Source: a bacterium (lineage in GTDB: Bacteria > Patescibacteriota > Microgenomatia > UBA10105 > UBA927). Taken from it: 64,000 nucleotides of DNA. Location of the stretch: the NCBI GenBank assembly GCA_021817785.1, contig JAKAFY010000002.1:11750-75749 (forward strand), written 5' to 3'. The position numbers were made by a program, and so were the translations under genes. Below are positions 641 through 64,000 of this stretch, piece after piece. Positions within the stretch are counted from its first letter, which is position 1; every line of letters begins with the position of its first letter. The notes below the pieces were generated by a model. That model saw only the letters and a list, made by a program, of their open reading frames with translations, did no database searches and had not been told where the DNA came from.

Positions 641-2668
641 ATGAAATTAGAACTACAACAATTATTTCAGGATGTTTTGAACGAAGTCGGAGTTACTGAC
701 ATCGTTCCCGACGTTGTCATGTCTGCCGACAGCAAACACGGGGAATACACCACCAACGTTGCCATGAGACTGGCAAAACCATTGAAAAAAAGTCCGATGG
801 ATATCGCACTACAGGTTAAAACGAGCATCGAGAAGCGAGTATCGGGTGTCAGGCACAAGATTCCAGATCAGAAGAATAGCAAACCAGATCAAAAGAATGC
901 AGGCAATGTAACGGAAAAAAATACATTACAGGATAAAGATAATACGAAGTTGTCGACCAGCGATATCTTGTCGTCCATTGACCGCATAGAAATAGCTCCT
1001 CCCGGCTTTATCAACGTGTTTTTAAAGGATGTCGCCCTAAGCAGTCAGGTGAGGGAAGTGCTAAAAGATGGGGAGCGCTATGGAAAGAGCCAAAGCGGAA
1101 AAGGGAAGCACCTTATGGTGGAATACACCGACCCCAATCCGTTTAAGGAATTGCATATCGGACACTTATATAGCAATGCCGTAGGGGAGAGTTTGGCCCG
1201 TCTGTACGCTGCAATAGGATGGGATGTTTCCCGCGTGGACTACTTTGGAGATGTCGGTATGCATGTGGCCAAGTCCATATGGGGACTGCGGAAAAAAATG
1301 GCAGAAGATCATGTCACCCTGGCTGTTTTGGAAAGTAAGCCGCTTCCGGAACGGGTGCAATATTTGGGCCAGGCCTACGCAAAAGGCGCTACCATCTACG
1401 AAGAAAAGACGCCGGAGGCGGAGAAAGCCAAAGAAGAGATGAAAGACATAAACTACATGGTGTATCTGGCAGCCCAGGAGTATATGGAAAAGGCGCTCAA
1501 ATGGACGCCGCAGGTGGATTACCGCCAGTATGTGCAGGTCGATGATACGCTCTATCAGGAAGTGAAGGAACTATACGAAAAAGGCCGCACCTGGAGTATG
1601 GACTATTTTGAAACGATTTTCCGCCGGTTGGGCACGCATTTTGATGCGTATTATCCTGAATCCATCGTCGGAGAATATGGCGCAAAGCTTGTCCGGGAGC
1701 ATATAGGCAAGGTATTTGAAGAAAGCGACGGAGCCGTGGTCTTTCGCGGAGAATCCTCGAAAGCCGGACTGCATACCCGGGTATTTTTGAATTCTCTGGG
1801 ATTGCCGACCTATGAGGCCAAAGAATTGGGGTTGAACTGGAAAAAGAGCCAGGATTATGCCCTGGATAAGTCGTTTATCGTGACCGGCAACGAAATCAAC
1901 GAATACTTTAAAGTCCTGTTTGCTGCCATGGAGCAGGTTATTCCGGAAATCGGGGCAAAAACGAAACATATAGGCCATGGCATGGTGAGAAATGCGGACG
2001 GGAGCAAAATGAGCAGCCGTACCGGAAACGTCCTGACCGGCGTGGGTATGCTGGAAGAGGTAAAGAAATCAATCTATGAGATACTAGATAAAAGTGAATC
2101 ATCCTCCTTCGTTAAAACGTCTGAGGACAAGGAGGAGATAGCGGAGAAAGGTGCAATAGCAGCTGTGAAATATAGTCTGCTTCGTGTGGCATTACCCTCG
2201 AATGTTTCGTTTAGTATCGCGACATCTATTTCTTTTGACGGCGACTCGGGGCCGTATCTTTTGTACACCTATGCCCGGTGTAAGAGTGTGCTGCGGAAGG
2301 CCTCTTCTGCATCAGCATTGGTTCCCAGTTCCTTAGGTGACTTAGGTAACCTAGGTGACGTACGTTTTAATGAAGATGAGCGTGCATTGGCGCGCCTCAT
2401 CCACTTCTTTCCGGAAATCGTAGCTGCTGCGGCACATGATTTGGCGCCAAACGTCATCTGTACCTATTTATTTGATCTCGCACAGTCCTTTAATACGTTT
2501 TATCAGAAACATCAAATTATCGAGCAGCGAGAACCGAGCAGTGAGAACCGAGGCTCGATGCTCGATACTCGATACTCGAATTTTCGTCTCGTCCTCACTG
2601 CCGCCACTGCCCAGGTGTTGCAAAATGGCCTTAATCTTCTGGGCATCTCCACAGTTGAACGGATGTAA
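641..2668 (+). CDS. argS: arginine--tRNA ligase (class I) carrying in-frame insertions
   Basis: HIGH-type motif PNPFKELHIGH, a class-I catalytic core, and a C-terminal anticodon-binding domain ending ...LLGISTVERM. At 675 aa it is longer than typical ArgRS because of insertions (see findings). Confidence 0.9.
   Translation: MKLELQQLFQDVLNEVGVTDIVPDVVMSADSKHGEYTTNVAMRLAKPLKKSPMDIALQVKTSIEKRVSGVRHKIPDQKNSKPDQKNAGNVTEKNTLQDKDNTKLSTSDILSSIDRIEIAPPGFINVFLKDVALSSQVREVLKDGERYGKSQSGKGKHLMVEYTDPNPFKELHIGHLYSNAVGESLARLYAAIGWDVSRVDYFGDVGMHVAKSIWGLRKKMAEDHVTLAVLESKPLPERVQYLGQAYAKGATIYEEKTPEAEKAKEEMKDINYMVYLAAQEYMEKALKWTPQVDYRQYVQVDDTLYQEVKELYEKGRTWSMDYFETIFRRLGTHFDAYYPESIVGEYGAKLVREHIGKVFEESDGAVVFRGESSKAGLHTRVFLNSLGLPTYEAKELGLNWKKSQDYALDKSFIVTGNEINEYFKVLFAAMEQVIPEIGAKTKHIGHGMVRNADGSKMSSRTGNVLTGVGMLEEVKKSIYEILDKSESSSFVKTSEDKEEIAEKGAIAAVKYSLLRVALPSNVSFSIATSISFDGDSGPYLLYTYARCKSVLRKASSASALVPSSLGDLGNLGDVRFNEDERALARLIHFFPEIVAAAAHDLAPNVICTYLFDLAQSFNTFYQKHQIIEQREPSSENRGSMLDTRYSNFRLVLTAATAQVLQNGLNLLGISTVERM
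2519..2590. repeat. family-A in-frame repetitive element in argS (CGAGCAGCGAG ... CTCGATACTCGATACTCG)
   Basis: Homologous at the nucleotide level to lepA 13510-13580. It encodes EQREPSSENRGSMLDTRYS at a position where ArgRS orthologs are about 15 aa shorter. Confidence 0.6.
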
Positions 2669-6144: not shown

Positions 6145-7407
6145 TCACCACCCCAACACCTGTCCTGCGATGGAAAGCAGGGAAGCTGCCGTGATAAATA
6201 CGCCGCCGCCGACGAGTAACCAATTCTGGAGCCGGGTATTCCGGTGTTTGCCCATAATTTTTTCATTATTCACGAACCGGTACAGGAAGAAAAAGATGAT
6301 CGGCAGTACGGCGCCATTGAAGAAATTGCCGATCACGGTGATGGAAAACAGGGTCACGGCAGGGAACAGGACGATGATGGTGCCGAGGGCGAGTTGAATC
6401 AGCAGGATCGTGTAAAAAAGCCGGCTTTTATGAAAATCCTCGTTTAAACTTCCGGGATAGCCAAAAAATTCCGAAAATGCATAGGAAGTGGAAAGCGGTA
6501 CGATGATGCAGCCAAACAGCCCGGCGACAAACAGCCCCATACCGAACAACAGGCCCGCCAGATTGCCTGCGAACGGTTTTATGGCGATAGACGCTTCCGC
6601 CGCTCCGGTAATCTGGACGCCGTGGACAAACAGCGTGGCGATTACCGCCACCATCATAAAAAATGAAAATAAATCGGTGAGGAACGCGCCCGTATACACT
6701 TCCCAGCGGTTGTACTTTAAATGCTCGACGGTCAGATGTTTGTCTTTGACGGTGGAATTGATAAAAAATTGCCCCCATGCGGTTATGGTGGTGCCGACGA
6801 CGGCTATGGCCGTATAGATAAACTTCGGGGAAAACGGCCCTTCCGGCAGGATCATCGATCGCACCGCCATACCCCAGTCCGGTTTGGATAGGATGGCGGA
6901 TACCATGTATACGAGATAAAACCCGATGGTGATCAGGAAAAACCGTTCAGTGGTTTTGTATTGCACCCGGACGATAAACAGGAACAGCAGGCCGACGATG
7001 ATCGGTAGCAATATCGTTGGCAGACCAAAGAGTGCGAGTGCGGATTTGACGCCCGCCAGATCCAGTACCACGACCGTAAAGTTTACGATAAACAGAAGCA
7101 CGAACATAGCGATAGAAATCCGTACGCCGTACTGTTCGCGGATGAGGTCGGCAAGTCCTTTGTCTGCCACGATACCGATTCTGGCGCCTATCTCCTGGGT
7201 TAATGCGAGCAATATGGTCATTGGGATGGTGATGATCAGGATCCTATAGCCAAATGTTGCCGCGGACACAGAATAGGCGGATACGCCGGCCGCATCATTA
7301 TCCGCAAATGCGGTAATAAGCCCCGGTCCGATGATGAGAGCGACGACCAGCAGCCGTTTCCATTTATATTTGATATACCGCAATATGGCGTAAAGTTTTT
7401 GGTTCAT
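6145..7407 (-). CDS. Nramp-related divalent cation transporter with a non-canonical metal site
   Basis: GPGLITAFADNDAAG aligns to the Nramp TM1 motif GPGFLMSIAxxDPGN, and TAIAVVGTTITAWGQFF aligns to TM6 (A-x-x-M-P-H). The protein has about 11 TM helices. Confidence 0.8.
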   Translation of the reverse strand: MNQKLYAILRYIKYKWKRLLVVALIIGPGLITAFADNDAAGVSAYSVSAATFGYRILIITIPMTILLALTQEIGARIGIVADKGLADLIREQYGVRISIAMFVLLFIVNFTVVVLDLAGVKSALALFGLPTILLPIIVGLLFLFIVRVQYKTTERFFLITIGFYLVYMVSAILSKPDWGMAVRSMILPEGPFSPKFIYTAIAVVGTTITAWGQFFINSTVKDKHLTVEHLKYNRWEVYTGAFLTDLFSFFMMVAVIATLFVHGVQITGAAEASIAIKPFAGNLAGLLFGMGLFVAGLFGCIIVPLSTSYAFSEFFGYPGSLNEDFHKSRLFYTILLIQLALGTIIVLFPAVTLFSITVIGNFFNGAVLPIIFFFLYRFVNNEKIMGKHRNTRLQNWLLVGGGVFITAASLLSIAGQVLGW

Positions 7408-7467
7408 AGTTCATGGTTCATAGGAAGATATTCTTGCGCTCTTGCTATGAACGTTCTTTCTGTCTTG

Positions 7468-10245: not shown

Positions 10246-11070
10246 ATGGCCATGATTGAACGTTCTACATTTCGATCGCCCGAAACGCACCCTCATTCCA
10301 CGCGTGCATTGTTGTGGGCAACGCTGACCAGCGCTACTGTGGAAAAGGACTATGTGCCGAACCGAGAGCGGCAAAACACGGTATTTGACCGCATAGACTG
10401 GAGCACATTTGAGTCCGAAGTGGCTGCAGAATCGACAGGAACTGGTGAAGGAGCGGGAAAAAGGCTTCGCGGTAAGATTTTTGAGATGTTTATTCAGGCG
10501 GATCCTGAATTCGGAGAGCGTACTCCGTTGGAAAAGGAATTATTGGCCTTGGCTCACAATCCAGATGCATTTGGATTGGGGAAAGAATTAGGCTACCACC
10601 GAAACCCCGATATGGCGTTTCTTATTGTCCAAAAAGAGGATGGTGTGGTCATCGAGGGAGTCGGAGAATCGAAATTGGGACTACTAAACGAGCGCTCGTT
10701 TAAACAACTATCCGAAACAGGCTTTGCTGCCGGGGTGAAAGCGTTAGCAGACGTGGTCAATACATTGCCGAACCCAGAAGCGCATGGGCTTGTCGAAGTG
10801 GCAAAAGCACGACAGGCACTGGCTCCGGGCAAGCAGCTGCTTACAATCTCTCCGGAATTTACCCAGCTTCTTGTGGTGCCTGCAAACCGCACAATTGAGT
10901 GGGCGAGCACGCTTATTAACCGCCGAGAGTTTAGTCCAGCCGGCAGGCAGGAGTTTTACGAGTTATTGAACGATACCCGTCATGTTCGGACGGCGAGAGC
11001 GGCCTTTAGTACGGCAGAGGTATCCGCAGTTGCGAATTGTTTTTCTCGCAATTTGACGAGAGGTACATAA
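10246..11070 (+). CDS. hypothetical protein
   Basis: Start trimmed to the ATG at 10246 within ORF 10132-11070. No recognisable domain. Its last roughly 55 nt are duplicated at 12036-12090. Confidence 0.4.
   Translation: MAMIERSTFRSPETHPHSTRALLWATLTSATVEKDYVPNRERQNTVFDRIDWSTFESEVAAESTGTGEGAGKRLRGKIFEMFIQADPEFGERTPLEKELLALAHNPDAFGLGKELGYHRNPDMAFLIVQKEDGVVIEGVGESKLGLLNERSFKQLSETGFAAGVKALADVVNTLPNPEAHGLVEVAKARQALAPGKQLLTISPEFTQLLVVPANRTIEWASTLINRREFSPAGRQEFYELLNDTRHVRTARAAFSTAEVSAVANCFSRNLTRGT
10984..11039 (+). repeat. 55-bp direct repeat, left copy (3' end of the 10246-11070 gene)
   Basis: GTTCGGACGGCGAGAGCGGCCTTTAGTACGGCAGAGGTATCCGCAGTTGCGAATTG is about 87% identical to 12036-12090. Confidence 0.6.
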
Positions 11071-12035: not shown

Positions 12036-12090
12036 GTTCGGACGGTGAGAGCGGCCTTTAGTACGGCAGAAGTAAGCGCGGTGGCGAATG
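12036..12090 (+). repeat. 55-bp direct repeat, right copy (intergenic)
   Basis: GTTCGGACGGTGAGAGCGGCCTTTAGTACGGCAGAAGTAAGCGCGGTGGCGAATG. Together with the left copy it brackets the 11118-11924 ORF. Confidence 0.6.
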
Positions 12091-12627: not shown

Positions 12628-14646
12628 ATGTCAGATCAATCCCACATTCGAAATTTCGCCATCATTGCCCACATAGATCATGGCAAGAGCACGCTTGCTG
12701 ATCGGTTGTTGGAGCTTACCCATACTGTCGCTCAGCGGGACATGCATGCCCAGCTTCTGGATAGCAACCCCATCGAGCAGGAGAGGGGGATTACCATCAA
12801 ATTAGCGCCGGTGCGGATGATGTATCAAGCGAAAAACGAAAATGGAAAAACGAAAAATGAACATACGCAACACATTTCAGATTTTCCATCGTACATTTTA
12901 AATTTAATTGATACTCCGGGACACGTAGACTTTGGGTATGAAGTCAGTAGGTCGTTGGCGGCCTGTGAAGGCGCGCTCCTCGTCGTCGATGCGACGCAGG
13001 GCGTACAGGCCCAGACATTGGCCAACCTGCATCAAGCCCGTCAGCACAATCTCACCATTATTCCTTTGATAAACAAAGTCGATATGCCGCATGCTCGGAT
13101 TGCAGAAACACGAGAGGAGCTTAGAAGCTTAGGTTTTAACGATGAAGAAATGATCGAAATATCGGCAAAAACCGGGGTAAACGTGGAGAAAGTGCTGGAA
13201 GCGGTTATCGAACGTATACCACCACCCCATGGAGATCCGGATGCGCCGCTTCGGGCGCTTATATTTTCGTCCCAATACGATACGCATAAAGGCGTCGTTA
13301 TATTTGTACGGGTAGTAGATGGTAGTATTCACTTTGATCCACTATTGAGACTGAGATTTATGGCATCAAAGAGTGACAACGCTCCTATAGAAGTTGGGTA
13401 CTTTTCCCCGCAGTGGGTGGCGACTACCGATTTGCATTGCGGCGAGGTAGGGTATATCGCCACGGGACTCAAAGATGTGAAGTTGGCAAAGGTCGGGGAT
13501 ACCGTAACGATACTCGAGCAACGAGCAGCGAGTAGAGAGAAAAGGGTGTCATCGACTCTCGATACTCGTTCCTCGATGCCCGTCCCGCTTACCGGGTACA
13601 AAGAGCCCAAGTCCATGGTGTTTTTGGGGCTGTTCCCGCTGGCTGCGGATGAATATCAGGAAACGCGGGAAGCGGTAGAAAAGCTTCAGCTATCAGACAG
13701 TGCGTTTTCGTTCCGGCCCATATCGTCGCTTGCTTTGGGCAACGGCTTCCACTGCGGATTTTTAGGACTCCTGCATGCAGAAGTGGCCCAGGAACGGATT
13801 TTGCGTGAATTTGGCCTCACCATGATCGCGACCAGTCCGAGTGTGGAATATCACCTAACCCTTCATCCCGGAGTTGATTATCATAAACTTGGTTTTACAC
13901 AATCATCTGTCATTGCGAGTGAAACGAAGCAATCTCATGATGATAACGAGATCGCCACGTCCCGCGATGGCGGGACTCGCGATGACATGGGGGTGACGGT
14001 TGCCATCCAGTCTGCGGAAGAGTATCCGGATCCTTCACAGGTGGCGTCCGTCAAGGAGCCGATTATGAGCGTGGATATTTACAGCCCGAAAAAGTATACC
14101 GGCGCCATCATGCAACTTTCCCAGGAAAAACGGGGGGTGTATATGGACTTGACGTACGTTGGAGACCAAGCGCACTTTGTATACCTTATTCCGCTTTCCG
14201 AAATGATCGTCGACTTCTTTGATCGGCTAAAGAGCGTGACCGAAGGGTACGCCAGTTTGGACTACGAATTTTTTGATTGGCAAGAGGTAGAAGTCGTTAA
14301 GGTCGATATATTGGTCAATAAAGAACAGGTCGATGCACTGTCATTTCTCATCACCCGCGATGCGGCACTACAGCGCAGTCGTGAGCTGGTGGAACGCTTG
14401 GCAGGAGTGATTCCTCGCCAGCAGTTTGAAATCCCCATACAGGCCACCATAGGCGGCCAGGTGATCGCACGATCGGACGTGAAAGCGTTTCGCAAAGACG
14501 TCACGCGCAAGCTCTATGGCGGTGACCGCACCCGGAAAGACAAACTCTTGGAAGCACAAAAGAAAGGCAAGGCGAAGATGAAAATGATCGGGAGAGTGGA
14601 GATACCACAGTCAGCGTTCTTTCAGGTGCTGAAGCGGACGAATTGA
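12628..14646 (+). CDS. lepA: elongation factor 4 (LepA) translational GTPase with three in-frame insertions
   Basis: IRNFAIIAHIDHGKSTLADRLLE G1 motif, DTPGHVDF, NKVD, and LepA-specific C-terminal domains. At 672 aa it is about 70 aa longer than typical LepA. Confidence 0.92.
   Translation: MSDQSHIRNFAIIAHIDHGKSTLADRLLELTHTVAQRDMHAQLLDSNPIEQERGITIKLAPVRMMYQAKNENGKTKNEHTQHISDFPSYILNLIDTPGHVDFGYEVSRSLAACEGALLVVDATQGVQAQTLANLHQARQHNLTIIPLINKVDMPHARIAETREELRSLGFNDEEMIEISAKTGVNVEKVLEAVIERIPPPHGDPDAPLRALIFSSQYDTHKGVVIFVRVVDGSIHFDPLLRLRFMASKSDNAPIEVGYFSPQWVATTDLHCGEVGYIATGLKDVKLAKVGDTVTILEQRAASREKRVSSTLDTRSSMPVPLTGYKEPKSMVFLGLFPLAADEYQETREAVEKLQLSDSAFSFRPISSLALGNGFHCGFLGLLHAEVAQERILREFGLTMIATSPSVEYHLTLHPGVDYHKLGFTQSSVIASETKQSHDDNEIATSRDGGTRDDMGVTVAIQSAEEYPDPSQVASVKEPIMSVDIYSPKKYTGAIMQLSQEKRGVYMDLTYVGDQAHFVYLIPLSEMIVDFFDRLKSVTEGYASLDYEFFDWQEVEVVKVDILVNKEQVDALSFLITRDAALQRSRELVERLAGVIPRQQFEIPIQATIGGQVIARSDVKAFRKDVTRKLYGGDRTRKDKLLEAQKKGKAKMKMIGRVEIPQSAFFQVLKRTN
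13510..13580. repeat. family-A in-frame repetitive element in lepA
   Basis: CTCGAGCAACGAGCAGCGAG...CTCTCGATACTCG encodes EQRAASREKRVSSTLDTRSS, about 17 aa longer than LepA orthologs at this loop. Confidence 0.6.
13909..13986. repeat. family-B palindromic element, 78-bp in-frame copy in lepA
   Basis: GTCATTGCGAG...CGAAGCAATCT...GTCCCGCgatgGCGGGAC...CGCGATGAC, with terminal inverted repeats. It shares the 5' 13-mer and the CGAAGCAATCT box with 32608-32699, and is exactly 26 codons long. Confidence 0.65.
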
Positions 14647-15384: not shown

Positions 15385-15513
15385 GGTTGCGTTCGGTAGC
15401 CGTTATGGTGTCAATTTGTTACTTTGTCAAAAGTTGCGCCTTTTTCTGCAATATTTGTCCAAGAAAGCGTTGCTTTTGTCTGCGAACTATGAACTTTCTT
15501 TCTGTAAACTCGT

Positions 15514-16452: not shown

Positions 16453-16554
16453 AGATATAGTATAGGCAGATTTATCTGTAGGAAGTCAATGTTGCTGCTA
16501 CATGATGCTCATGGACACACAATAAACCACTATATCTGTTTATCATTTGCTAAT

Positions 16555-16580
16555 TTCCCCAATTGGTGAAATTGACAAAT
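16555..16580 (+). promoter_or_regulatory. palindromic operator-like motif copy 1 (TTCCCCAATTGGTGAAATTGACAAAT)
   Basis: Contains CCAATTGG and the CAATT-N5-AATTG inverted repeat plus a TTGACA -35-like hexamer. It lies 30 bp upstream of the PaaX-like gene. Confidence 0.45.
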
Positions 16581-16608
16581 TACCATACTACATCGTACGA
16601 TAGGGAGT

Positions 16609-17190
16609 ATGGCTAGGCGGGGGGCTAAAAAAGACATGAAGCAGCACGCGACGAAAGAAATTATATTAGAGTTGTTGCGTGAGGGCGGAACCCTTCTTAT
16701 CAGCGCGATAAAAGCAGGCCAGGAGCTTCGGCATCTTCGGGTACTTCGTGACCCGCTTCCGTCCTGGGAAGCGTATTATCCTTCGTCGGTCAATCGGCAA
16801 CTCAACCGTTTGTGGCGGAAAGGATATGTGGATATACGGGAAACGACTGAAGGATATGTTGTAACGATTTCTGATCGGGGGAAGACAGAAGTGCTTCGGT
16901 ATGACCTCAATACGATGGCAATTCCTGCTCAAACACAGTGGGATGGTAAATGGCGCATGGTGATATTTGATATTCCTGGGAGCGAAGAAACCGTACGGTC
17001 CGCATTTCGTAATCATTTAAAATCATTGGGATTTTACCAAATGCAAAAAAGTGTCTATGTCTATCCCTACCCTTGCGACGAGCAAATTCATTATCTGCGT
17101 GAGGTGTACAACATTCCGCATTCCGTTAAAATCGCGACGATTTCTGAGCTGGAAAACGATGAAGATTTGCGAAAAATCTTTCATTTATAA
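16609..17190 (+). CDS. PaaX-family transcriptional regulator
   Basis: N-terminal winged-helix region, and the C-terminal WDGKWRMVIFDIPGSEETVRSAFRNHLKSLGFYQMQKSVYVYP matches the PaaX_C signature W-G-W-x-V-x-F-x-P-E...LGFG. Confidence 0.7.
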   Translation: MARRGAKKDMKQHATKEIILELLREGGTLLISAIKAGQELRHLRVLRDPLPSWEAYYPSSVNRQLNRLWRKGYVDIRETTEGYVVTISDRGKTEVLRYDLNTMAIPAQTQWDGKWRMVIFDIPGSEETVRSAFRNHLKSLGFYQMQKSVYVYPYPCDEQIHYLREVYNIPHSVKIATISELENDEDLRKIFHL

Positions 17191-17192
17191 GT

Positions 17193-17235
17193 ATATATTT
17201 GTCAATTTTCCCAATTGGTGGATTTGACAAATATA
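17193..17235 (+). promoter_or_regulatory. palindromic operator-like motif copy 2 (ATATATTTGTCAAT-tttCCCAATTGGtgg-ATTTGACAAATAT)
   Basis: Near-perfect 13-bp inverted repeat flanking the CCAATTGG core. It lies between the paaX-like stop and the first gene of the paralog array. Confidence 0.5.
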
Positions 17236-17251
17236 TCCAAATACACAGCAT

Positions 17252-35793: not shown

Positions 35794-35884
35794 TAAAAAA
35801 GGCAGACTCTCGTCTGCCGGTTATTTCGTTACTTCGTTATTTGGTTACTTCGTTACTTGGTAAGGCCGGCAGACCTTTTTTTAT
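35794..35884. terminator. bidirectional rho-independent terminator region with alternative hairpins and tandem repeats
   Basis: A-run, then hairpin GGCAGAC-tctc-GTCTGCC (35801-35819), then tandem GTTACTTCGTTA repeats, then CCGGCAGACC followed by a T7 run (35876-35883). Confidence 0.5.
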
Positions 35885-35906: not shown

Positions 35907-36569
35907 TCAGGCGAGCCGTTTCCTCCCCATCATAAAGAGCAAGACGCCCATCCCGCCGATAGCGGCGAATGTCGCGATAATCATATTGTCTTCAAATCCC
36001 GCAACCGGCAGGGTCGTGGCACCTAAGACTTTGGTTTGTACGCAGAGTGAGCTTGTATCCTGGTCGGATTGGCCGCCCGGACCGGTGGCGGTCACGGTAT
36101 TGACGATATTGCAGGTGATGTCCTGGTTGGCAGGAAATACCGACGTGTCTTTGACTTTGACCAGTACGCGGTTATGGACGGTGGTGCCGGCGTTGAGATT
36201 GGACAATTCGTACGTCAGTTTGTTGGCCGCGGCTTCATACGTGCCCGGACCGGACACAAAGGTCACTTGGCTTGGGAATACGTCGATGACCGTCACCGTC
36301 TGGAAATTCACGTTACTTGTATTGGTTACGGCCACGTCGTATTCCACTTCATCTTTGGGGGAATATGCGGGATCAGCGCTTGTCAGATTTTCGACAAACA
36401 GGTTGGGATTTCCCGGATAGGCCACTTTTTTGTTGACAACGATATTGGTAGCCGGGCAGTCCACGGTAGCGCCGTATTGATTGGTGCAGCCGTCGGCCAG
36501 TGCTCGCGGAGCGATCGCGAATAACGAGCCGATAACCAGGAATGATGCAATTCGTTGTTTTGTGCTCAT
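35907..36569 (-). CDS. sortase-substrate-like surface protein (LPVAG sorting signal)
   Basis: N-terminal signal peptide. The C-terminal LPVAG is followed by the hydrophobic stretch IIATFAAIGGMGVLLFMM and the basic tail GRKRLA, the classic cell-wall sorting signal architecture. The protein is Thr/Val/Asn-rich. Confidence 0.6.
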   Translation of the reverse strand: MSTKQRIASFLVIGSLFAIAPRALADGCTNQYGATVDCPATNIVVNKKVAYPGNPNLFVENLTSADPAYSPKDEVEYDVAVTNTSNVNFQTVTVIDVFPSQVTFVSGPGTYEAAANKLTYELSNLNAGTTVHNRVLVKVKDTSVFPANQDITCNIVNTVTATGPGGQSDQDTSSLCVQTKVLGATTLPVAGFEDNMIIATFAAIGGMGVLLFMMGRKRLA

Positions 36570-37290: not shown

Positions 37291-38196
37291 TCAGATAGAC
37301 AAGGTCGAGTCTTGCACCAAATCTGCAAATATAAGAAGTCGCTCTGTCGTAGAACCCGGAGGCCAGCAGGTCTGGAGGATAAGATTTTTGGTGCCTGCGT
37401 GGGGGACGAGGTAAGAAACAGCCTCGGGAGAGACAATCTTTTTTTCGGTGATTTTGTATGTGTACTGGCGGCCTTTGTATATGATAGCTATCTGGTCTCC
37501 CGTGTCCAGGTTTTTGACCAGGTAAAAGACGGCGTTTAGGTCTTTTACAAACCAGTCGTAGCTTGTGGAATGGGAAAAAAGGTACACCGTGCCGTTTTCG
37601 TCCGGAAAGTAGCTTGTGGAGGCGTGTGCGACCCCTTCGGTGAGCGCTTTTTCGTATTCGCCCGGGTTTGCAGGATTGACGGCTGGGATAACCTTGGCAT
37701 TCACCCCGATTTTGGGGATGATGAGGCCAAAGTTGGTGTCCACCGGCACGATTGCGGAGCCGTCCGGATTGGTAAGCGGGGTAAAAAGCACGGTTTTGGC
37801 GTTCGTGGCCACGGGTTTGGGTGCGGGCTTTATGCGGTCGGCAAGGGAGCGCGAAAGCGTAGAGAACGCAGGCACCATACGCTTCGTGGCGCGGGAACCG
37901 TATTGAAGCGTCTCTATAGCAAGGATATCTGCCCGTTTTGCGGCTGTATTGATGATTGTACGAGCCTGCATGCTACGGTACCCAGCCTCTAACCGGATAA
38001 ACGGCGTAAGCGGGCCGGTAAGGCCGCCTAAAGCCAGCGCAATGAGGCCAAGGCCGAGTATTTTGCCAAGATCGGACTGTTTTTTTTGCGTTACTGTCGA
38101 CTGTGAACCGTGAACTACGGACTTTTTATAGTCCCAGTCGTGATAGTAGATGATGCCGGAGGAGCGCATAGAGTTAACAAAGTGACAAATTGACAA
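37291..38196 (-). CDS. sortase family transpeptidase
   Basis: N-terminal TM anchor, conserved His region (YLFSHS), catalytic TLxTC-like LILQTCWP, and RLLIFA (Arg). It lies about 700 bp from the LPVAG substrate gene. Confidence 0.75.
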   Translation of the reverse strand: MSICHFVNSMRSSGIIYYHDWDYKKSVVHGSQSTVTQKKQSDLGKILGLGLIALALGGLTGPLTPFIRLEAGYRSMQARTIINTAAKRADILAIETLQYGSRATKRMVPAFSTLSRSLADRIKPAPKPVATNAKTVLFTPLTNPDGSAIVPVDTNFGLIIPKIGVNAKVIPAVNPANPGEYEKALTEGVAHASTSYFPDENGTVYLFSHSTSYDWFVKDLNAVFYLVKNLDTGDQIAIIYKGRQYTYKITEKKIVSPEAVSYLVPHAGTKNLILQTCWPPGSTTERLLIFADLVQDSTLSI

Positions 38197-38325
38197 AGTA
38201 ACGGGAAATACAGTGTGTGATCTTAATTGGTTACTTTGTTTGTCGGTAATTTGTTATAGTAGTATACACTATAAGCTAGTTGTGGGCAACTGAAGTAACA
38301 AGGTGCATGTATAAAGAAGTACGTA

Positions 38326-39231: not shown

Positions 39232-39291
39232 GTAAGCTCGGGAGTATAGCAGAATAGCCTATAAGAGGCAACTCTCTGTCTTTATATGCGA

Positions 39292-39333
39292 GATATTTGT
39301 CAATTTCACCAATTGGGAAATATAACAAATATA
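39292..39333 (-). promoter_or_regulatory. palindromic operator-like motif copy 3 (reverse orientation), upstream of the GNAT gene
   Basis: ATATTTGTCAATttcaCCAATTGGgaaATATAACAAATAT is the reverse complement of the 16555/17207 motif. It lies about 65 bp upstream of the GNAT start. Confidence 0.45.
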
Positions 39334-39421
39334 TGTGAAGCGACTCAAGACATACAAAGCCTATCATCTGCTTAGGTGATCCCGTATGCGGAAGGCGGGC
39401 TATTACTGAACGGCCCGTTTT

Positions 39422-48562: not shown

Positions 48563-49849
48563 ATGCATACACAACCATTTATAAAAAAAGTATTACCAAA
48601 CGGCGTGCGGCTATTGCTCGTGCCTGTTCCCAGCGTCAATAGTGTGGCCTCTGCCGTCCTCGTCGGTGTGGGGAGCCGGTATGAAACACCGGACATAAAC
48701 GGCATTTCCCATTTCCTCGAGCATATGGTGTTTAAAGGAACGGCAAAATATCCCACGATGGACGACGTGACGGTGATCGAACGCGTCGGTGGGCTTCAGA
48801 ATGCCTATACCGATATTGATGTCACTAACTACCACAACAAAGTATTGGCGGAAGATTGGGAGTTGGGGCTCGAGATCAATAAAGAATTGGCCCTCCACCC
48901 CAGGCTGGAAGAACAGTGGGTGGACAAGGAACGCGATGTCATCATCGAAGAAATGAAGCGCTATGACGATGAGCCGGCCGCCAAAGTGGAAGAAACGTTC
49001 CACGGCATGTTGTATCGCGGCACCAAACTCGGGATGCGGATCATCGGCGAGGAAGCGAGCTTGAGACGAGTAGCGAGTAGCGAGCTTCGGTCGTATCACG
49101 ACGTCTGGTATATGCCGGAAAAAACGGTGGTGATAGCAGCAGGCAATATAGACGGGAAGCGGGTGTCGAGTATCGAGGGTCGGGTATCCGAATGGTTTTC
49201 CGATATGAAAGGCAGGGCACAGGGGGATATAGAGATGGTAAAAGAAACGCAGACCGCTCCAAAATTGGAAGTGGTGACGAAACCCGACGCACAGCAGGCA
49301 CATCTGGTCATAGGACTTCGGACCTTTGCCCGTGGCAGCGAGGACCGGTTTGCCTGGGGGGTATTTAACCTGTTGATGGGTGTGGGATTTACCTCACGTC
49401 TGTTTAAAGAAGTACGCGAAAAGCGGGGGCTCTGCTATCATGTGAGAAGCGAAAGCTCCGCATTTGCGGACGTCGGGTACTGGGACATTTACGCCGGGGT
49501 GGCCACTGCCAAAGTGGAGGAAGCGACACAGGCGATACTCAGTGAATTATCCAAAGCCGCAGACAAAGGGGTGACGGAAGACGAAGTCACTGTCGCCAAA
49601 AAGCGGCTAAAGACGGTGCTGGCATTCCGGAGTGAAGATCCGGAGTTTTTTACCGAATGGTACGGCCGGCAGGAAGTGTACAATCAGCCGTTGATGACGC
49701 TTGAAGAGTATATCAAAAAGATAGATAACGTATCGAAAGAAGACATACATCGGTTAGTGAGACACTATTTCAAAACCGAAACGCTCAACATGGCACTCGT
49801 CTGGAGCAAAGGGCGGGAAGAAAAATTACTTCAATTGCTGCATATATAA
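48563..49849 (+). CDS. M16 family zinc peptidase (insulinase-like)
   Basis: Inverted zinc motif HFLEHMVFKGT (HxxEH), with the downstream Glu region EEMKRYDDEPAAKVEE. Confidence 0.85.
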   Translation: MHTQPFIKKVLPNGVRLLLVPVPSVNSVASAVLVGVGSRYETPDINGISHFLEHMVFKGTAKYPTMDDVTVIERVGGLQNAYTDIDVTNYHNKVLAEDWELGLEINKELALHPRLEEQWVDKERDVIIEEMKRYDDEPAAKVEETFHGMLYRGTKLGMRIIGEEASLRRVASSELRSYHDVWYMPEKTVVIAAGNIDGKRVSSIEGRVSEWFSDMKGRAQGDIEMVKETQTAPKLEVVTKPDAQQAHLVIGLRTFARGSEDRFAWGVFNLLMGVGFTSRLFKEVREKRGLCYHVRSESSAFADVGYWDIYAGVATAKVEEATQAILSELSKAADKGVTEDEVTVAKKRLKTVLAFRSEDPEFFTEWYGRQEVYNQPLMTLEEYIKKIDNVSKEDIHRLVRHYFKTETLNMALVWSKGREEKLLQLLHI

Positions 49850-50664: not shown

Positions 50665-51297
50665 GTGACTCCTACTATACTCGCCATCGTAGGAAAGCCT
50701 CTCGCCGGCAAAGATACCCAAGCCGACTTACTTGTGGCAGCCCACCCCGAAGCCGTCAAAATTTCCACCGGCCATATCCTGCGCGCCGTGCGTGAAGAAG
50801 GGGAGACGCATCGGTTTTGGCCGATTGTAGGGCACCTGATGCCCATGATGGAAGCCGGCCTCAAATTGCCGGATCCCGAGGTCATCGAGATGCTGGGGCG
50901 CGCAATCAGTGAGCAAGTGGCGGAAGGCAAAACACTGTTGGTTATCGCAGGTTCCCCGCGCAGCATTGAGCAGCTGGAAAGCTTTGAAGGGATGGCAAAC
51001 GCGATAGACGGTAAGCTCGTGGTCGTCCATGTCAACGCAACAGATGCCGAAACCTACCGACGAAGCGCCAGCCGCAACGAGGGAAGGGTGGATGATACGC
51101 CGGAGGTGCATGCCGTGCGCCTGAAAGAATACGAAACACATGTCGTGCCGATGGTAGAAAAGTTACGTGCCGACCACAATATAGTGGATATAGACGGGAT
51201 GAAGTCCATAGAGTCCGTATTCCGTGATATGGAACACGTGGTCCGCACCCGCATCCTGGACCCCGAAGTTGCTTTGCCCCGCATGGCCAGGCGGTAA
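50665..51297 (+). CDS. adenylate kinase-like NMP kinase (paralog 1) with an atypical P-loop
   Basis: ILAIVGKPLAGKDTQA...ISTGHILRAV, GSPRSIEQ, and RVDDTPE LID-like motifs match Adk architecture. The P-loop GKDT replaces the canonical GKGT. Confidence 0.7.
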   Translation: MTPTILAIVGKPLAGKDTQADLLVAAHPEAVKISTGHILRAVREEGETHRFWPIVGHLMPMMEAGLKLPDPEVIEMLGRAISEQVAEGKTLLVIAGSPRSIEQLESFEGMANAIDGKLVVVHVNATDAETYRRSASRNEGRVDDTPEVHAVRLKEYETHVVPMVEKLRADHNIVDIDGMKSIESVFRDMEHVVRTRILDPEVALPRMARR

Positions 51298-51306
51298 TTC
51301 ACCCGT

Positions 51307-51948
51307 ATGAAACAGCAACCCACCATCATATCTATACTCGGCCGTCCTATGTCCGGCAAAGACACGCAGGCGGCGTTTCTGAAAGAACGCTATCCCGAGG
51401 CAGTCATCCTGTCTACCGGGGCCATGATCCGAGAGGTAAAAGAAACCGGTCCTTCGCATCGGTTTTGGCCCATATTGGGGCAGGAAATAGAGGTCATGGA
51501 CAAAGGCATACTCATCTCCGAAGACGCCATAAACCAGGTGTTTGAACGGGTGGTACACGAGCAGTTGGAAGCCGGAAAAACGCTGATTATCGCTACCGCT
51601 CACCCGCGGACACCAAAGGAGTTGCAGTCGTTTGACGCTATGCTTGCCCGCGAAGGCTTGCAGTTTATCGGGATACATTTGCAGACGTCAGAAGCGTATA
51701 TGCGCAAGCTTCACAAAACGCGGGACGGGAGCAACCGCGCAGATGACGATGTGGCTGTGCTGGATACGCGGACACAGGAATTTGAACACCGTACCAAGCC
51801 CGTTATAGATGCCCTGCGCAGCGAAGGACGCATTGCAGATATCGACGGGGAGGCTTCGAAAGAAATTGTCTATTCACGCGTTTTGGATGTCGTACGTCCG
51901 GCGTTGGGGGATCCTGAAATTACGTTGCCCATGATGGCAAGGAGATAA
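51307..51948 (+). CDS. adenylate kinase-like NMP kinase (paralog 2) with an atypical P-loop
   Basis: IISILGRPMSGKDTQA...LSTGAMIREV, AHPRTPKE, and RADDDVAV match Adk architecture. It lies 9 bp downstream of paralog 1. Confidence 0.7.
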   Translation: MKQQPTIISILGRPMSGKDTQAAFLKERYPEAVILSTGAMIREVKETGPSHRFWPILGQEIEVMDKGILISEDAINQVFERVVHEQLEAGKTLIIATAHPRTPKELQSFDAMLAREGLQFIGIHLQTSEAYMRKLHKTRDGSNRADDDVAVLDTRTQEFEHRTKPVIDALRSEGRIADIDGEASKEIVYSRVLDVVRPALGDPEITLPMMARR

Positions 51949-53257: not shown

Positions 53258-53362
53258 CAGAAAGGTAGTATAGCATGAAAAGAGAATGAATGGCCAATAG
53301 CCACGAATTAAGTCAAAAGTGAATTCACAAACTAAACGATAAATACACTTTTATTCTTTTAC

Positions 53363-53400
53363 TATTTGTATTTTTTCCCAATTGGTGGATTTGGCAAATG
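53363..53400 (+). promoter_or_regulatory. palindromic operator-like motif copy 4 (TTTTCCCAATTGGTGGATTTGGCAAAT)
   Basis: Same CCCAATTGGTGGATTTG core as the copy at 17207. It lies between two minus-strand genes. Confidence 0.4.
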
Positions 53401-53407
53401 AGCGGAA

Positions 53408-60419: not shown

Positions 60420-60782
60420 TATGCCGTAGTATAGCGTATTTTGGAGAATTTTGCGAGGAGGGGATTATGTAGGCCACTGCAACGGTCGGCCTCTCCCATT
60501 TTGTTCTGTGACTAATTTTTGAAATTTAGCTTCTCGTCGAGTTCGAAATATTTTGTTGGCTTTTTCGCCCGTAAAATTTTTAGCGAGTTCCGCAGCATCA
60601 TCTCCTGCGGCCTGTCGGAGTGAAAAATCATCACCCTTTATTTCAACCGTTTTACTATGTATGGATACATACATATTTGTATTATACCCCACAATACAAG
60701 CGGTGTGCCGCTATGGGGCTTGATTGACTCGTTAGCGAATCGATGCATATCGATGAGTGTACGTCATCAATCCTAGCGCTTT

Positions 60783-60850
60783 GTGCCCCTAGAGGGAATT
60801 GAACCCCCATCTTGCCCTTAGGACGGGCCTGCTCTCCGCCTGCCATAGCC
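60783..60850 (-). pseudogene. tRNA-Arg-like partial copy (anticodon arm plus T arm only; no foldable 5' half)
   Basis: The minus-strand sequence GGCCCGTCCTAAGGGCAAGATGGGGGTTCAATTCCCTCTAGGGGCAC is about 80% identical to the 3' two-thirds of the adjacent tRNA-Arg. The 23 nt upstream cannot form an acceptor or D stem. Confidence 0.35.
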
Positions 60851-60852
60851 TG

Positions 60853-60924
60853 TGCCCTTGGGGGGAATCGAACCCTCATCTCACCCTTAGGACGGGTTTG
60901 CTCTATCCATTGAGCTACAAAGGC
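60853..60924 (-). tRNA. tRNA-Arg (anticodon CCT), no encoded CCA
   Basis: Manual fold. Acceptor stem GCCTTTG/CAAGGGC (one G-U pair), D arm GCTC-AATGGATA-GAGC, anticodon stem with loop GTCCTAA (U33, CCT, A37), T arm GAGGG-TTCGATT-CCCCC, discriminator A. Confidence 0.75.
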
Positions 60925-62975: not shown

Positions 62976-64000
62976 ATGTTCGGATTCACGAAACGGTTGG
63001 GAATTGACTTGGGCACTGCCAATAGCGTCGTGTGGCTGGCAGGCAGCGGCGTGGTCTTAAACGAACCCACTGTAGTCGCTGTAACGGTAGATGACGGGCG
63101 GGTGGTGGCAGTAGGAAACGAAGCCAAGGATATGTTGGGCAGAACCCCGGGCAATATCACCGCCAGTCGTCCCATGCGGGACGGGGTGATAGCCGACTAT
63201 CAGATCACGGAAGCCATGCTCTCGTACTTTATCGACCGCGCAGTCGGCAGAAACCGCATATTTAAGCCGGAAATCATGATCTGCGTGCCTACCGGGGCCT
63301 CCCAGGTGGAGCGCAGGGCGGTCATCGATGCCACGCTTGCCGCCGGTGCACGGGTGGCATATCTCATCGAAGAGCCGCTGGCTGCTGCCATAGGCGCCAA
63401 AATCCCCATAGCCCAGGCGTCGGGACACATGATCGTGGATATCGGCGGAGGGAGTACGGAAGCGGCCGTCATATCACTAGGCGGCGTCGTAGTCCACAAA
63501 AGCGCCCGCGTAGCCGGAAACAAGCTGGATGAAGCGATCGCCAACTTTGTGAAGAAAAATTACAACCTGATTATCGGCGAACGGATGGCAGAGGCGATCA
63601 AAATCACTATCGGGGATGCAATGGGAAGTCAGACAAAAGTAAACAGTTCACAGTTCACGGAAAAACAAAAACAATTGGCAACTGGCAACTCAAAACTGCC
63701 TGCTGATTCTATGGAGGTGCGCGGCCGGGACGCGGTATCCGGATTGCCGAGAATCATCACGGTAACGCGCGCAGAGCTTACGGCTGCGATAACGCCGGTG
63801 CTTCATCACATCATTTCCGCCATAAAAAGTGTCCTGGAGGAAACGCCGCCGGAGCTTGCCGCGGATATTATCGACAAAGGGATCGTCATGGCAGGAGGCA
63901 CGAGCCTGCTGCGGAATTTTGACAAGCTGGTGACGCAGATGACCGGCGTGCCGGCCCACGTGGCCGATGAGCCGCTTCTGTGTGTCGTGCGGGGCACCGG
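62976..64000 (+). CDS. mreB: rod shape-determining protein MreB (3'-truncated by the window end) with an in-frame insertion
   Basis: MFGFTKRLGIDLGTANSVV, MICVPTGASQVERRAV, and IVDIGGGSTEAAVISLGG actin-fold motifs. No stop codon before the window end. Confidence 0.9.
   Translation, partial: MFGFTKRLGIDLGTANSVVWLAGSGVVLNEPTVVAVTVDDGRVVAVGNEAKDMLGRTPGNITASRPMRDGVIADYQITEAMLSYFIDRAVGRNRIFKPEIMICVPTGASQVERRAVIDATLAAGARVAYLIEEPLAAAIGAKIPIAQASGHMIVDIGGGSTEAAVISLGGVVVHKSARVAGNKLDEAIANFVKKNYNLIIGERMAEAIKITIGDAMGSQTKVNSSQFTEKQKQLATGNSKLPADSMEVRGRDAVSGLPRIITVTRAELTAAITPVLHHIISAIKSVLEETPPELAADIIDKGIVMAGGTSLLRNFDKLVTQMTGVPAHVADEPLLCVVRGT

Follow-up and report, generated by a model that had tools for sequence, protein, structure and literature searches.

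Inverted heptanucleotide arrays as in-frame insertions in the argS and lepA genes of a Patescibacteria genome

The question raised by this locus is how two unrelated housekeeping genes of one bacterium, argS (arginyl-tRNA synthetase, ArgRS) and lepA (EF4), come to carry what looks like the same extra piece of DNA, read in frame in both. The two genes lie in the 64-kb stretch analysed here (the window), whose source organism is a member of the Patescibacteria (candidate phyla radiation, CPR), represented by a Microgenomates/Gottesmanbacteria-like metagenome-assembled genome (MAG; GCA_027341155.1, contig DAIENL010000002.1); the source genome was covered over the window and a further 9 kb upstream. 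A first-pass annotation had reported related DNA and matching peptides in argS and lepA, and the sequences and peptides that it quoted proved correct; absent from it were the heptamer periodicity and the inverted tandem arrangement of both elements. We favour, with what we judge to be an even chance of being right, the reading that both segments are members of one lineage-specific heptanucleotide-array family, whose arrays would have arisen and multiplied through slippage, template switching by fold-back and templating over short patches, with selection as a subsequent filter.

Anatomy and placement of the argS and lepA elements

In argS, positions 2521-2580 repeat a 7-nt unit in two runs of opposite orientation (CGAGNAN, then NTNCTCG), which together occupy 60 nt with no spacer, a single G standing between the arms (CGAG G CTCGATG). 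The segment is translated in frame as ...IIEQREPSSENRGSMLDTRYSNF..., the product of the two arms being EQREPSSENRGSMLDTRYSNF (residues 628-648). In lepA, positions 13508-13582 form a 75-nt segment of two inverted runs of CGAGNAN/NTNCTCG units parted by a spacer, translated in frame as ...ILEQRAASREKRVSSTLDTRSSMP..., and the whole element yields LEQRAASREKRVSSTLDTRSSMPVP (residues 296-320). Tandem Repeats Finder (TRF) gave periods of 7 and 14 across the two elements, in runs of 3-4.5 units; for the argS left arm it returned period 14, 2.3 copies and 94% matches.

Because the arms are convergent inverted pairs, the DNA or RNA of either element can fold back on itself. The earlier suggestion that the element ends are complementary and could form a stem-loop was borne out, the arms pairing modestly on the mRNA (+) strand, where the predicted folding energies were −25.5 kcal/mol for argS and −28.8 kcal/mol for lepA (z about −2). 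Predicted folding of the opposite (−) strand was stronger, at −33.6 kcal/mol (z −4.25) for argS and −34.3 kcal/mol (z −2.7) for lepA, the gain coming from G-U pairs. A search of the window with Rfam at the gathering threshold returned two tRNAs only and no RNA family at the elements.

Comparison with orthologs gave the size of the inserts. ArgRS orthologs at 63-69% identity have 4 residues (e.g. GDEK) where the window protein has 21, a difference of +17 aa, and LepA orthologs at 80-82% identity have 7 residues (GKENTNQ) against 25, a difference of +18 aa reckoned against the orthologs P0122 and P0123. The claim that the genes hold in-frame extra residues missing in orthologs was therefore confirmed by measurement. 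The window LepA has three inserts relative to Thermus thermophilus EF4, and alignment with that protein leaves a 17-aa gap at the site of the element. Proteins with these argS and lepA sequences recur on at least five contigs, from at least three independent assemblies, so that the elements are not an assembly artefact.

The placement of the inserts in loops, which had also been proposed, agreed with what we found, the ArgRS insert being a modelled coil between helices and the LepA insert a gap relative to solved EF4. In an AlphaFold2 (AF2) model of ArgRS (mean predicted local distance difference test score, pLDDT, 84.8), the insert forms a coil at residues 624-639 with a pLDDT of about 52, between helices 603-623 and 640-666. 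The argS product matched solved ArgRS structures, and the Pfam domains Arg_tRNA_synt_N, tRNA-synt_1d and DALR_1 were found in its orthologs. As modelled, the ArgRS site is the loop that joins the final two helices of the anticodon-binding domain. The LepA site probably corresponds to the junction of EF4 domains II and III, as placed by the alignment with T. thermophilus EF4 and the known domain layout. Both loops seem tolerant of almost any sequence. Of the six possible reading frames 4-5 are open through the elements, the one actually used being the most hydrophilic; the inserts are presumably translated, adding 17-18 hydrophilic, probably disordered residues to each enzyme.

The same hypervariable loop of LepA holds the peptide VIPAKAGIQ/G in the Patescibacteria orthologs P0184, P0188 and P0228. 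We take this peptide to resemble the translation of another common GC-rich hairpin repeat.

Table 1. Positions of the CGAG arrays, their host genes and further repeats (window coordinates unless a locus is named)
Feature	Position	Strand	Sequence or remark
argS, arginyl-tRNA synthetase	641..2668	+	675 aa; intact ORF with translation; host of two CGAG arrays
Left arm, argS C-terminal element	2521..2552	+	CGAGCAG CGAGAAC CGAGCAG TGAGAAC CGAG; 4.5 CGAGNAN units
Right arm, argS C-terminal element	2554..2580	+	CTCGATG CTCGATA CTCGATA CTCGA; 3.7 units, complement of left-arm core
ArgRS insert peptide			EQREPSSENRGSMLDTR
lepA (EF4)	12628..14646	+	672 aa; intact ORF; host of lepA element
Left arm, lepA element	13508..13539	+	CGATACT CGAGCAA CGAGCAG CGAGTAG AGAG
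Spacer/loop, lepA element	13540..13550	+	AAAAGGGTGTC; degenerate; from sequence and predicted fold
Right arm, lepA element	13551..13582	+	ATCGACT CTCGATA CTCGTTC CTCGATG CCCG
LepA insert peptide			EQRAASREKRVSSTLDTR
Single-arm CGAG array, argS N-terminal insert region	822..846	+	CGAGCAT CGAGAAG CGAGTAT CGGG; encodes SIEKRVSG
M16 peptidase gene	48563-49849		
M16 peptidase gene, site 1	49067..49084	+	CGAGTAG CGAGTAG CGAG; encodes RRVASSE
M16 peptidase gene, site 2	49160..49184	+	CGGGTGT CGAGTAT CGAGGGT CGGG; encodes RVSSIEGRVS
Example CGAGTAN hairpins outside CPR	L027 446-506; L057 3299-3380; L100 2877-2957; L119 2512-2732		
Direct array, lepA N-terminal region	12827-12861		CGAAAAA x4.6
Arrays in MreB-like ORF at window end	63635-63660; 63672-63690		ACAGTTC x2.3; CAACTGG x2.7
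Hairpin, Nramp-MgtE spacer	7399-7456		unit GTTCATN
Hairpin, Nramp-MgtE spacer of another locus	L004 4195-4256		unit GGTAGTN
Palindrome with GTCATTGCGAG terminus, two copies	13909-13986 (lepA); 32608-32699		11-nt terminal inverted repeats
Similar elements in other CPR loci	L132 9894-9964; L156 8056-8141		
Palindrome ATTTGTCAATTT..CCAATTGG..AAATTGACAAAT, four copies	16543-16584; 17193-17237; 39290-39334; 53362-53403		36-45 nt
PaaX-like regulator gene	16609-17190		
Period-8 arrays	35810-35863; 38174-38249; 15400-15430		intergenic
DUF11 protein gene	35907-36569		
Sortase gene	37291-38196		
Direct repeat, 54 nt	10984-11037; 12036-12089		89% identical, 1 kb apart
tRNA-Arg(CCT)	60852-60924	−	
Partial second copy of tRNA-Arg	60782-60835		83% identical
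Adenylate-kinase-family paralogs	50665-51297; 51307-51948		28-nt near-identical stretch at 50807 and 51455

A family of CGAG arrays and an excess of period-7 arrays

The pattern CGAGNNNCGAGNNNCGAG, a three-unit motif allowed at most one mismatch, had 16 matches in the window where 0.21 were expected, and none of 100 shuffles equalled this number; all seven perfect three-unit matches had A at the middle variable position. The shuffled-sequence test on which the first-pass annotation had made the likeness depend thus gave a significant result for this motif. Gapped Smith-Waterman comparison of the argS element with the whole window, on both strands, placed the lepA site first among all non-self matches (score 28.5, 47 of 63 positions identical; other tiles outside the family scored at most 17, with a median of 7), whereas BLASTN of each element against the window returned 11-nt words only, not above the level of shuffled windows. 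Taken together, the short BLAST words and the top Smith-Waterman rank indicate that the likeness lies in a shared unit and a collinear arrangement, and not in one long conserved block.

CGAG arrays were over-represented in the window by some 30-70-fold. Two-unit CGAG motifs numbered 15 in its 64 kb (about 0.5 expected), whereas 1.16 Mb from other CPR loci had 4, which is not above chance (about 9 expected); the family has therefore expanded in this lineage. This comparison set comprised 84 loci, 80 of which were obtained via an ArgRS profile. Within the window the family amounts to seven arrays at four sites, all inside open reading frames (ORFs) and three of the four in essential-type genes. 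A coding bias cannot be claimed, however, since four coding sites out of four are unremarkable at about 88% coding, an assumed figure (p about 0.6). A search of viral contigs with the specific two-arm consensus gave no matches.

The copies vary in build: two abutting arms in the argS C-terminal element, two arms and a spacer in lepA, one arm at the argS N-terminus and two direct arrays in a gene for an M16 peptidase (Table 1). At the argS N-terminal site, degenerate orthologous arrays occur in L207 (CGAGTAT TGAGGAG CGAATAT CGTCTAT) and L209 (GTATCCA GAATCAT GTATCCG GTATCAG), and other genomes have GTGAAAA x4 or GTCAAAA x4.7 there. The N-terminal array is older than the other copies and may have supplied the unit of the family.

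The M16 arrays have the same orientation as each other and are not insertions. The orthologs, at 426-428 aa, are like the window protein in length and align with it without gaps at site 1, while at site 2 the difference in length is at most 1 aa, and the 7-aa-periodic peptide of site 2 also occurs in some orthologs that are 72-76% identical. At site 1 the window codons CGA GTA GCG AGT AGC GAG (RRVASSE) stand against AGT GTG GCC AGC AAA GAG (RSVASKE) in an 83%-identical ortholog; the differences, three synonymous and two non-synonymous, are all toward the CGAGTAG repeat. Convergence at the protein level was dropped as an explanation, because the synonymous positions also fit the repeat.

The preference for seven nucleotides extends well beyond the CGAG unit. 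The 84 CPR loci contain 89 period-7 arrays; no other period between 5 and 13 exceeded 15 arrays, and shuffles gave fewer than one. A looser threshold gave 149, of which 105 (about 70%) lie in open frames of at least 450 nt, and 34 of the 149 are paired with an inverted partner. Units are highly diverse across the sample and in part specific to a genome: arrays of one locus that lie more than 300 nt apart formed same-unit pairs in 13.4% of cases, against 5.9% for arrays in different loci (permutation p<0.0005, without base-composition correction).

The loops that hold the window elements behave as hot spots. At least one array was present in 26 of 86 ArgRS genes, and the density there was 0.334 per kb compared with 0.095 per kb elsewhere (3.5-fold); the arrays cluster at query residues of about 50-100, 200-225, 525-575 and 600-650, with none in the catalytic core (250-450) of the 86 genes. 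The ArgRS C-terminal loop of L006 has NTCAGCN x4 ... GCTGAAA, the LepA loop of L005 has GTTGTAA x4 ... TTACAAC x3 and that of L208 an AACTATN unit, and the unit AAAGTCA is present in both LeuRS and ArgRS of L005. Unrelated units at the same loops in other lineages fit a general array-generating process better than they fit many transposon families.

Three further heptamer arrays or pairs of arrays were seen in the window. In the N-terminal region of lepA a direct array coincides with 13 inserted residues (NENGKTKNEHTQH...) when T. thermophilus EF4 is the reference; it lacks an inverted partner and has no structure by prediction (z +1.1). An MreB-like ORF at the window end has two short arrays, both within what is presumably an insert of about 20 aa (GSQTKVNSSQFTEKQKQLATGNSKLPADS) before the conserved EVRGRD motif, relative to E. 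coli MreB. The intergenic spacer between the Nramp and MgtE genes contains an inverted heptamer hairpin, and the corresponding spacer of L004 has a hairpin with a different unit (ΔG −35.8 kcal/mol, z −6.8); the pair suggests that structure or position is kept at this spacer while the sequence turns over.

Inverted CGAGTAN hairpins with perfectly complementary arms also occur outside the CPR, the matches listed (L007-L126) including Thermomicrobiales, Chloroflexia, Gemmatimonadales, Planctomycetaceae, Alcaligenaceae and Pseudoxanthomonas composti. Among these matches the hairpins are up to 25 units long, with several per MAG, and those of the Chloroflexota start AGTAACGAG and end CTCG(C/T)TACT. 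Period 7 was also dominant in these non-CPR genomes, a biased sample drawn from the same matches.

Origin of the arrays

The origin that we favour has four steps. Replication slippage in 7-nt steps would make the arrays and resize them. An inverted arm would arise by fold-back, or intra-strand, template switching, which would also hold the arms roughly complementary. The favoured unit would then be spread by short-patch ectopic templating off existing arrays, for example the older argS N-terminal array, and such templating might at times overwrite codons at constant length, as in the M16 peptidase. Selection would act only as a filter, so that the survivors would be those with a net length in multiples of three, free of stops, in the most hydrophilic frame and in loops.

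Several observations weigh against this origin. Near-identical contigs show no length variants, ArgRS being identical on five of them and the two LepA variants differing by one residue outside the element, and in the absence of copy-number polymorphism ongoing slippage is not demonstrated for these copies. Sharing of units within loci is modest, and the test for it was not corrected for base composition. Ectopic templating rests on essentially two sites in one gene, the M16 peptidase. The likeness of the argS and lepA elements exceeds what the shared unit would give, their score being 28.5 on the same strand and 18.5 on the opposite strand, with similar sizes, and this excess would also fit copies of one element. 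Finally, the source genome is seen over the window and 9 kb upstream only.

Copies of one element are what the most durable alternative supposes: a tiny non-autonomous hairpin, like a Rickettsia palindromic element (RPE), a miniature inverted-repeat transposable element (MITE) or a repetitive extragenic palindrome (REP), moved in trans by an enzyme whose gene lies elsewhere in the genome, and kept in argS and lepA because it is a stop-free multiple of three. The first-pass annotation had proposed an RPE-like mobile element. Much of its description stands, in that the segments are shared, multi-copy, in frame and absent in the nearest orthologs; the idea of a discrete mobile element was not borne out in that form, given the 7-nt tandem units, the heterogeneous copies and the M16 arrays that are not insertions. 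Presence against absence relative to the nearest orthologs is what a mobile hairpin would leave, as are the lineage-specific burst of CGAG motifs, the palindromic architecture and the status of the argS and lepA copies as mutual best matches in the window, collinear, similar in size and with the higher score on the same strand. In-frame insertion of palindromes does happen in this genome, because a MITE-like palindrome of another family, with GTCATTGCGAG termini, is also in frame in lepA and has a second copy at 32608-32699. Nevertheless, the CGAG elements have no termini apart from the arrays themselves, and no target-site duplication is readable at argS or lepA, since the closest empty sites share only 60-82% protein identity and their flanking DNA is unalignable, none of the empty sites compared being closer than 90% average nucleotide identity. 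Differences between the copies in arm number, unit count and spacer also argue against a discrete mobile element, and the M16 copies did not arise by insertion. The 30 window ORFs of at least 150 aa contain no transposase, reverse transcriptase or integrase Pfam domain, and the viral contigs held no match. In addition, scores of different units occupy the same loops in relatives, so that a separate mobile family would be needed for each unit. We consider a mobile hairpin unlikely, though well worth keeping in view.

Selected cis-acting sites form a weaker alternative, in which a periodic protein-binding array, or a hairpin affecting mRNA stability, translation pausing or replication, would be maintained and its placement in coding loops would be incidental. 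The Nramp-MgtE spacer hairpins of two genomes, with unrelated units, are in keeping with such a role, as is the better fold on the strand opposite the mRNA, and regulatory roles have been proposed for intergenic heptamer repeats (PMC4679880, PMC4692102). However, the argS and lepA inserts are missing in close relatives with the same genes and synteny and so cannot be essential, hairpins on the mRNA strand are weak (z about −2), the hosts are genes of unrelated function and no candidate binding protein was identified; on balance we regard this alternative as improbable. Chance resemblance of two independent low-complexity loop expansions, with which the hypervariability of both loops in many lineages and the bare 11-nt BLAST words, as in shuffled windows, would agree, is scarcely credible beside the three-unit motif count (16 against 0.21, with no shuffle equal), the top non-self Smith-Waterman rank of the lepA site and the 15 two-unit motifs against 0.5 expected and against 4 in 1.16 Mb of relatives.

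Two other candidates were rejected, an intein or intron because the segments are too short, lack catalytic motifs and leave the frame intact, and a phase-variable contingency simple-sequence repeat because the hosts are housekeeping genes and there is no copy-number polymorphism among the available contigs.

An origin by slippage and templating can be extended, tentatively and with the balance of probability somewhat against the extension, to CPR genomes at large. A pervasive 7-nt-array process would then be a main source of the lineage-specific insertions in their conserved proteins; the arrays would persist at permissive loops (the ArgRS N-terminus and C-terminal loop, the EF4 II-III junction, MreB and LeuRS) while their units turn over, and a favoured unit would be spread by templated copying and not by transposition, sometimes overwriting codons. 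If this is true, unexplained length differences of CPR housekeeping proteins would have a cause at the nucleotide level, 7-nt arrays becoming 7-aa periodic loops, and there would be a second route to in-frame palindromic inserts besides the Rickettsia RPEs, one that is independent of transposons and would count as a separate way in which proteins evolve. Gene callers can be misled by such arrays in CPR, as can alignment trimming and phylogenomic markers, among which ArgRS and LepA are commonly used. They also mark the loops of essential enzymes that tolerate insertion, and the unusually strong CPR signal makes it testable why bacteria prefer heptamers as their longer simple-sequence repeat.

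Known repeat systems and other repeats of the window

RPEs are described in PMC10969869 as palindromes of about 100-150 bp, in defined families, that lie in frame in unrelated genes at positions compatible with the protein fold and are translated together with the host protein. The CGAG elements resemble them in their palindromic form, in lying in frame, at loop positions, within housekeeping genes that are unrelated to each other, and in having several copies in a single lineage. They differ in that RPEs have a conserved encoded peptide, whereas the CGAG elements are 60-75 nt long and consist of tandem 7-nt units only; the CGAG family also includes single-arm and non-inserting copies, varies in the number of arms and units and has a Patescibacteria host. 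Descent from RPEs is implausible because the host is a Patescibacteria MAG.

REPs are extragenic, with a conserved head motif and a cognate REP-associated tyrosine transposase (RAYT; IS200/IS605-like, Y1), while a MITE is recognised by terminal inverted repeats, by target-site duplications and by its parent insertion sequence (IS). Like MITEs and REP-based bacterial interspersed mosaic elements (BIMEs) or hairpins (REPINs), the CGAG elements are short, imperfect palindromes, dispersed and lineage-specific. Unlike REPs they lie inside ORFs, and their arms make up the whole element; none of the hallmarks of either class was found in the window, and the Pfam scan of its 30 ORFs of at least 150 aa detected no RAYT gene.

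Closer parallels in unit length are the dispersed heptamers, namely GGGAATC in Xanthomonas, the short tandemly repeated repetitive (STRR) sequences of Nostoc and Calothrix (GGGGA(C/T)T and others) and TAACTGA in Beggiatoaceae (PMC4692102; PMC4679880). PMC4679880, citing other work, gives heptamers as the most abundant longer simple-sequence repeats in prokaryotes and polymerase slippage as their proposed origin. The Xanthomonas arrays form 70-75 convergent inverted pairs per genome (PMC4692102). Shared with these systems are the head-to-tail 7-nt unit in 2-5 or more copies, the dispersal of one favoured lineage-specific unit and the convergent inverted pairs able to form stem-loops. Those heptamers, however, lie mostly between genes, and a deficit in coding regions is reported for them (PMC4692102; PMC4679880), whereas all four CGAG sites are coding and read in frame, and about 70% of the CPR arrays lie in long open frames, concentrated in protein loops.

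Intragenic tandem repeats of Borgs make disordered protein regions and are direct, with a unit length divisible by three (PMC9879509), and PARCELs (palindromic amphipathic repeat coding elements) are palindromic coding repeats of roughly 100 nt (PMC2996958). In these systems, as here, a repeat process at the nucleotide level adds in-frame low-complexity or disordered segments. The CGAG unit differs in being 7 nt long, so that the three frames are read in turn and the peptide is periodic over 7 aa. The Chloroflexota CGAGTAN hairpins have the same core unit and architecture as the CGAG elements, e.g. (AGTAACG)n - loop - (CGTTACT)n, but their arms are perfectly complementary, even at the variable positions, and not every frame can be read through, because the units contain TAA or TAG. 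We found no evidence of common descent of these hairpins and the CPR CGAG family.

A literature search on CPR or Patescibacteria with palindromic in-frame, heptamer or tandem repeats returned nothing relevant, its coverage being incomplete and no proof of novelty, and one on heptamers repeated in inverted or hairpin form in bacteria yielded only those intergenic systems that were already known. Dispersed heptamer arrays and in-frame palindromic inserts are thus already known; what would appear to be new is that heptamer arrays, some of them inverted, serve in essential CPR genes as loop inserts read in frame.

Other repeats of the window are of different kinds (Table 1). The GTCATTGCGAG-type palindrome, unrelated to the CGAG arrays, has 11-nt terminal inverted repeats (GTCATTGCGAG ... 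CTCGC(A/G)ATGAC) and a predicted fold of −41 to −44 kcal/mol (z −3.5 to −4.8). Its lepA copy is in frame, encodes VIASETKQSHDDNEIATSRDGGTRDDM and is part of an insert of roughly 37 aa relative to T. thermophilus EF4, and its second copy forms the 3' end of an ORF at 32609-33340 (−). Elements similar to it are present in two other CPR loci, and the type is closer in kind to an RPE or MITE than the CGAG arrays are.

A palindrome of 36-45 nt (ATTTGTCAATTT..CCAATTGG..AAATTGACAAAT) is present in four copies, two of which flank a gene for a PaaX-like regulator with a Cas2-like middle domain; these palindromes may be operator sites. Period-8 arrays (GTTACTTC / GTTATTTG, complement ACAAAGTG), a repeat class distinct from the heptamers, are located near the genes for a sortase and a DUF11 protein. 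The direct repeat of 54 nt lies in and downstream of hypothetical ORFs between MgtE and lepA. Immediately downstream of tRNA-Arg(CCT) is a partial second copy of its 3' two-thirds, which ARAGORN and Rfam did not call as a tRNA; this copy could represent the scar of a duplication or of an integration, or else an aberrant tRNA. Two adjacent paralogs of the adenylate kinase family have a 28-nt stretch in common that is nearly identical between them.

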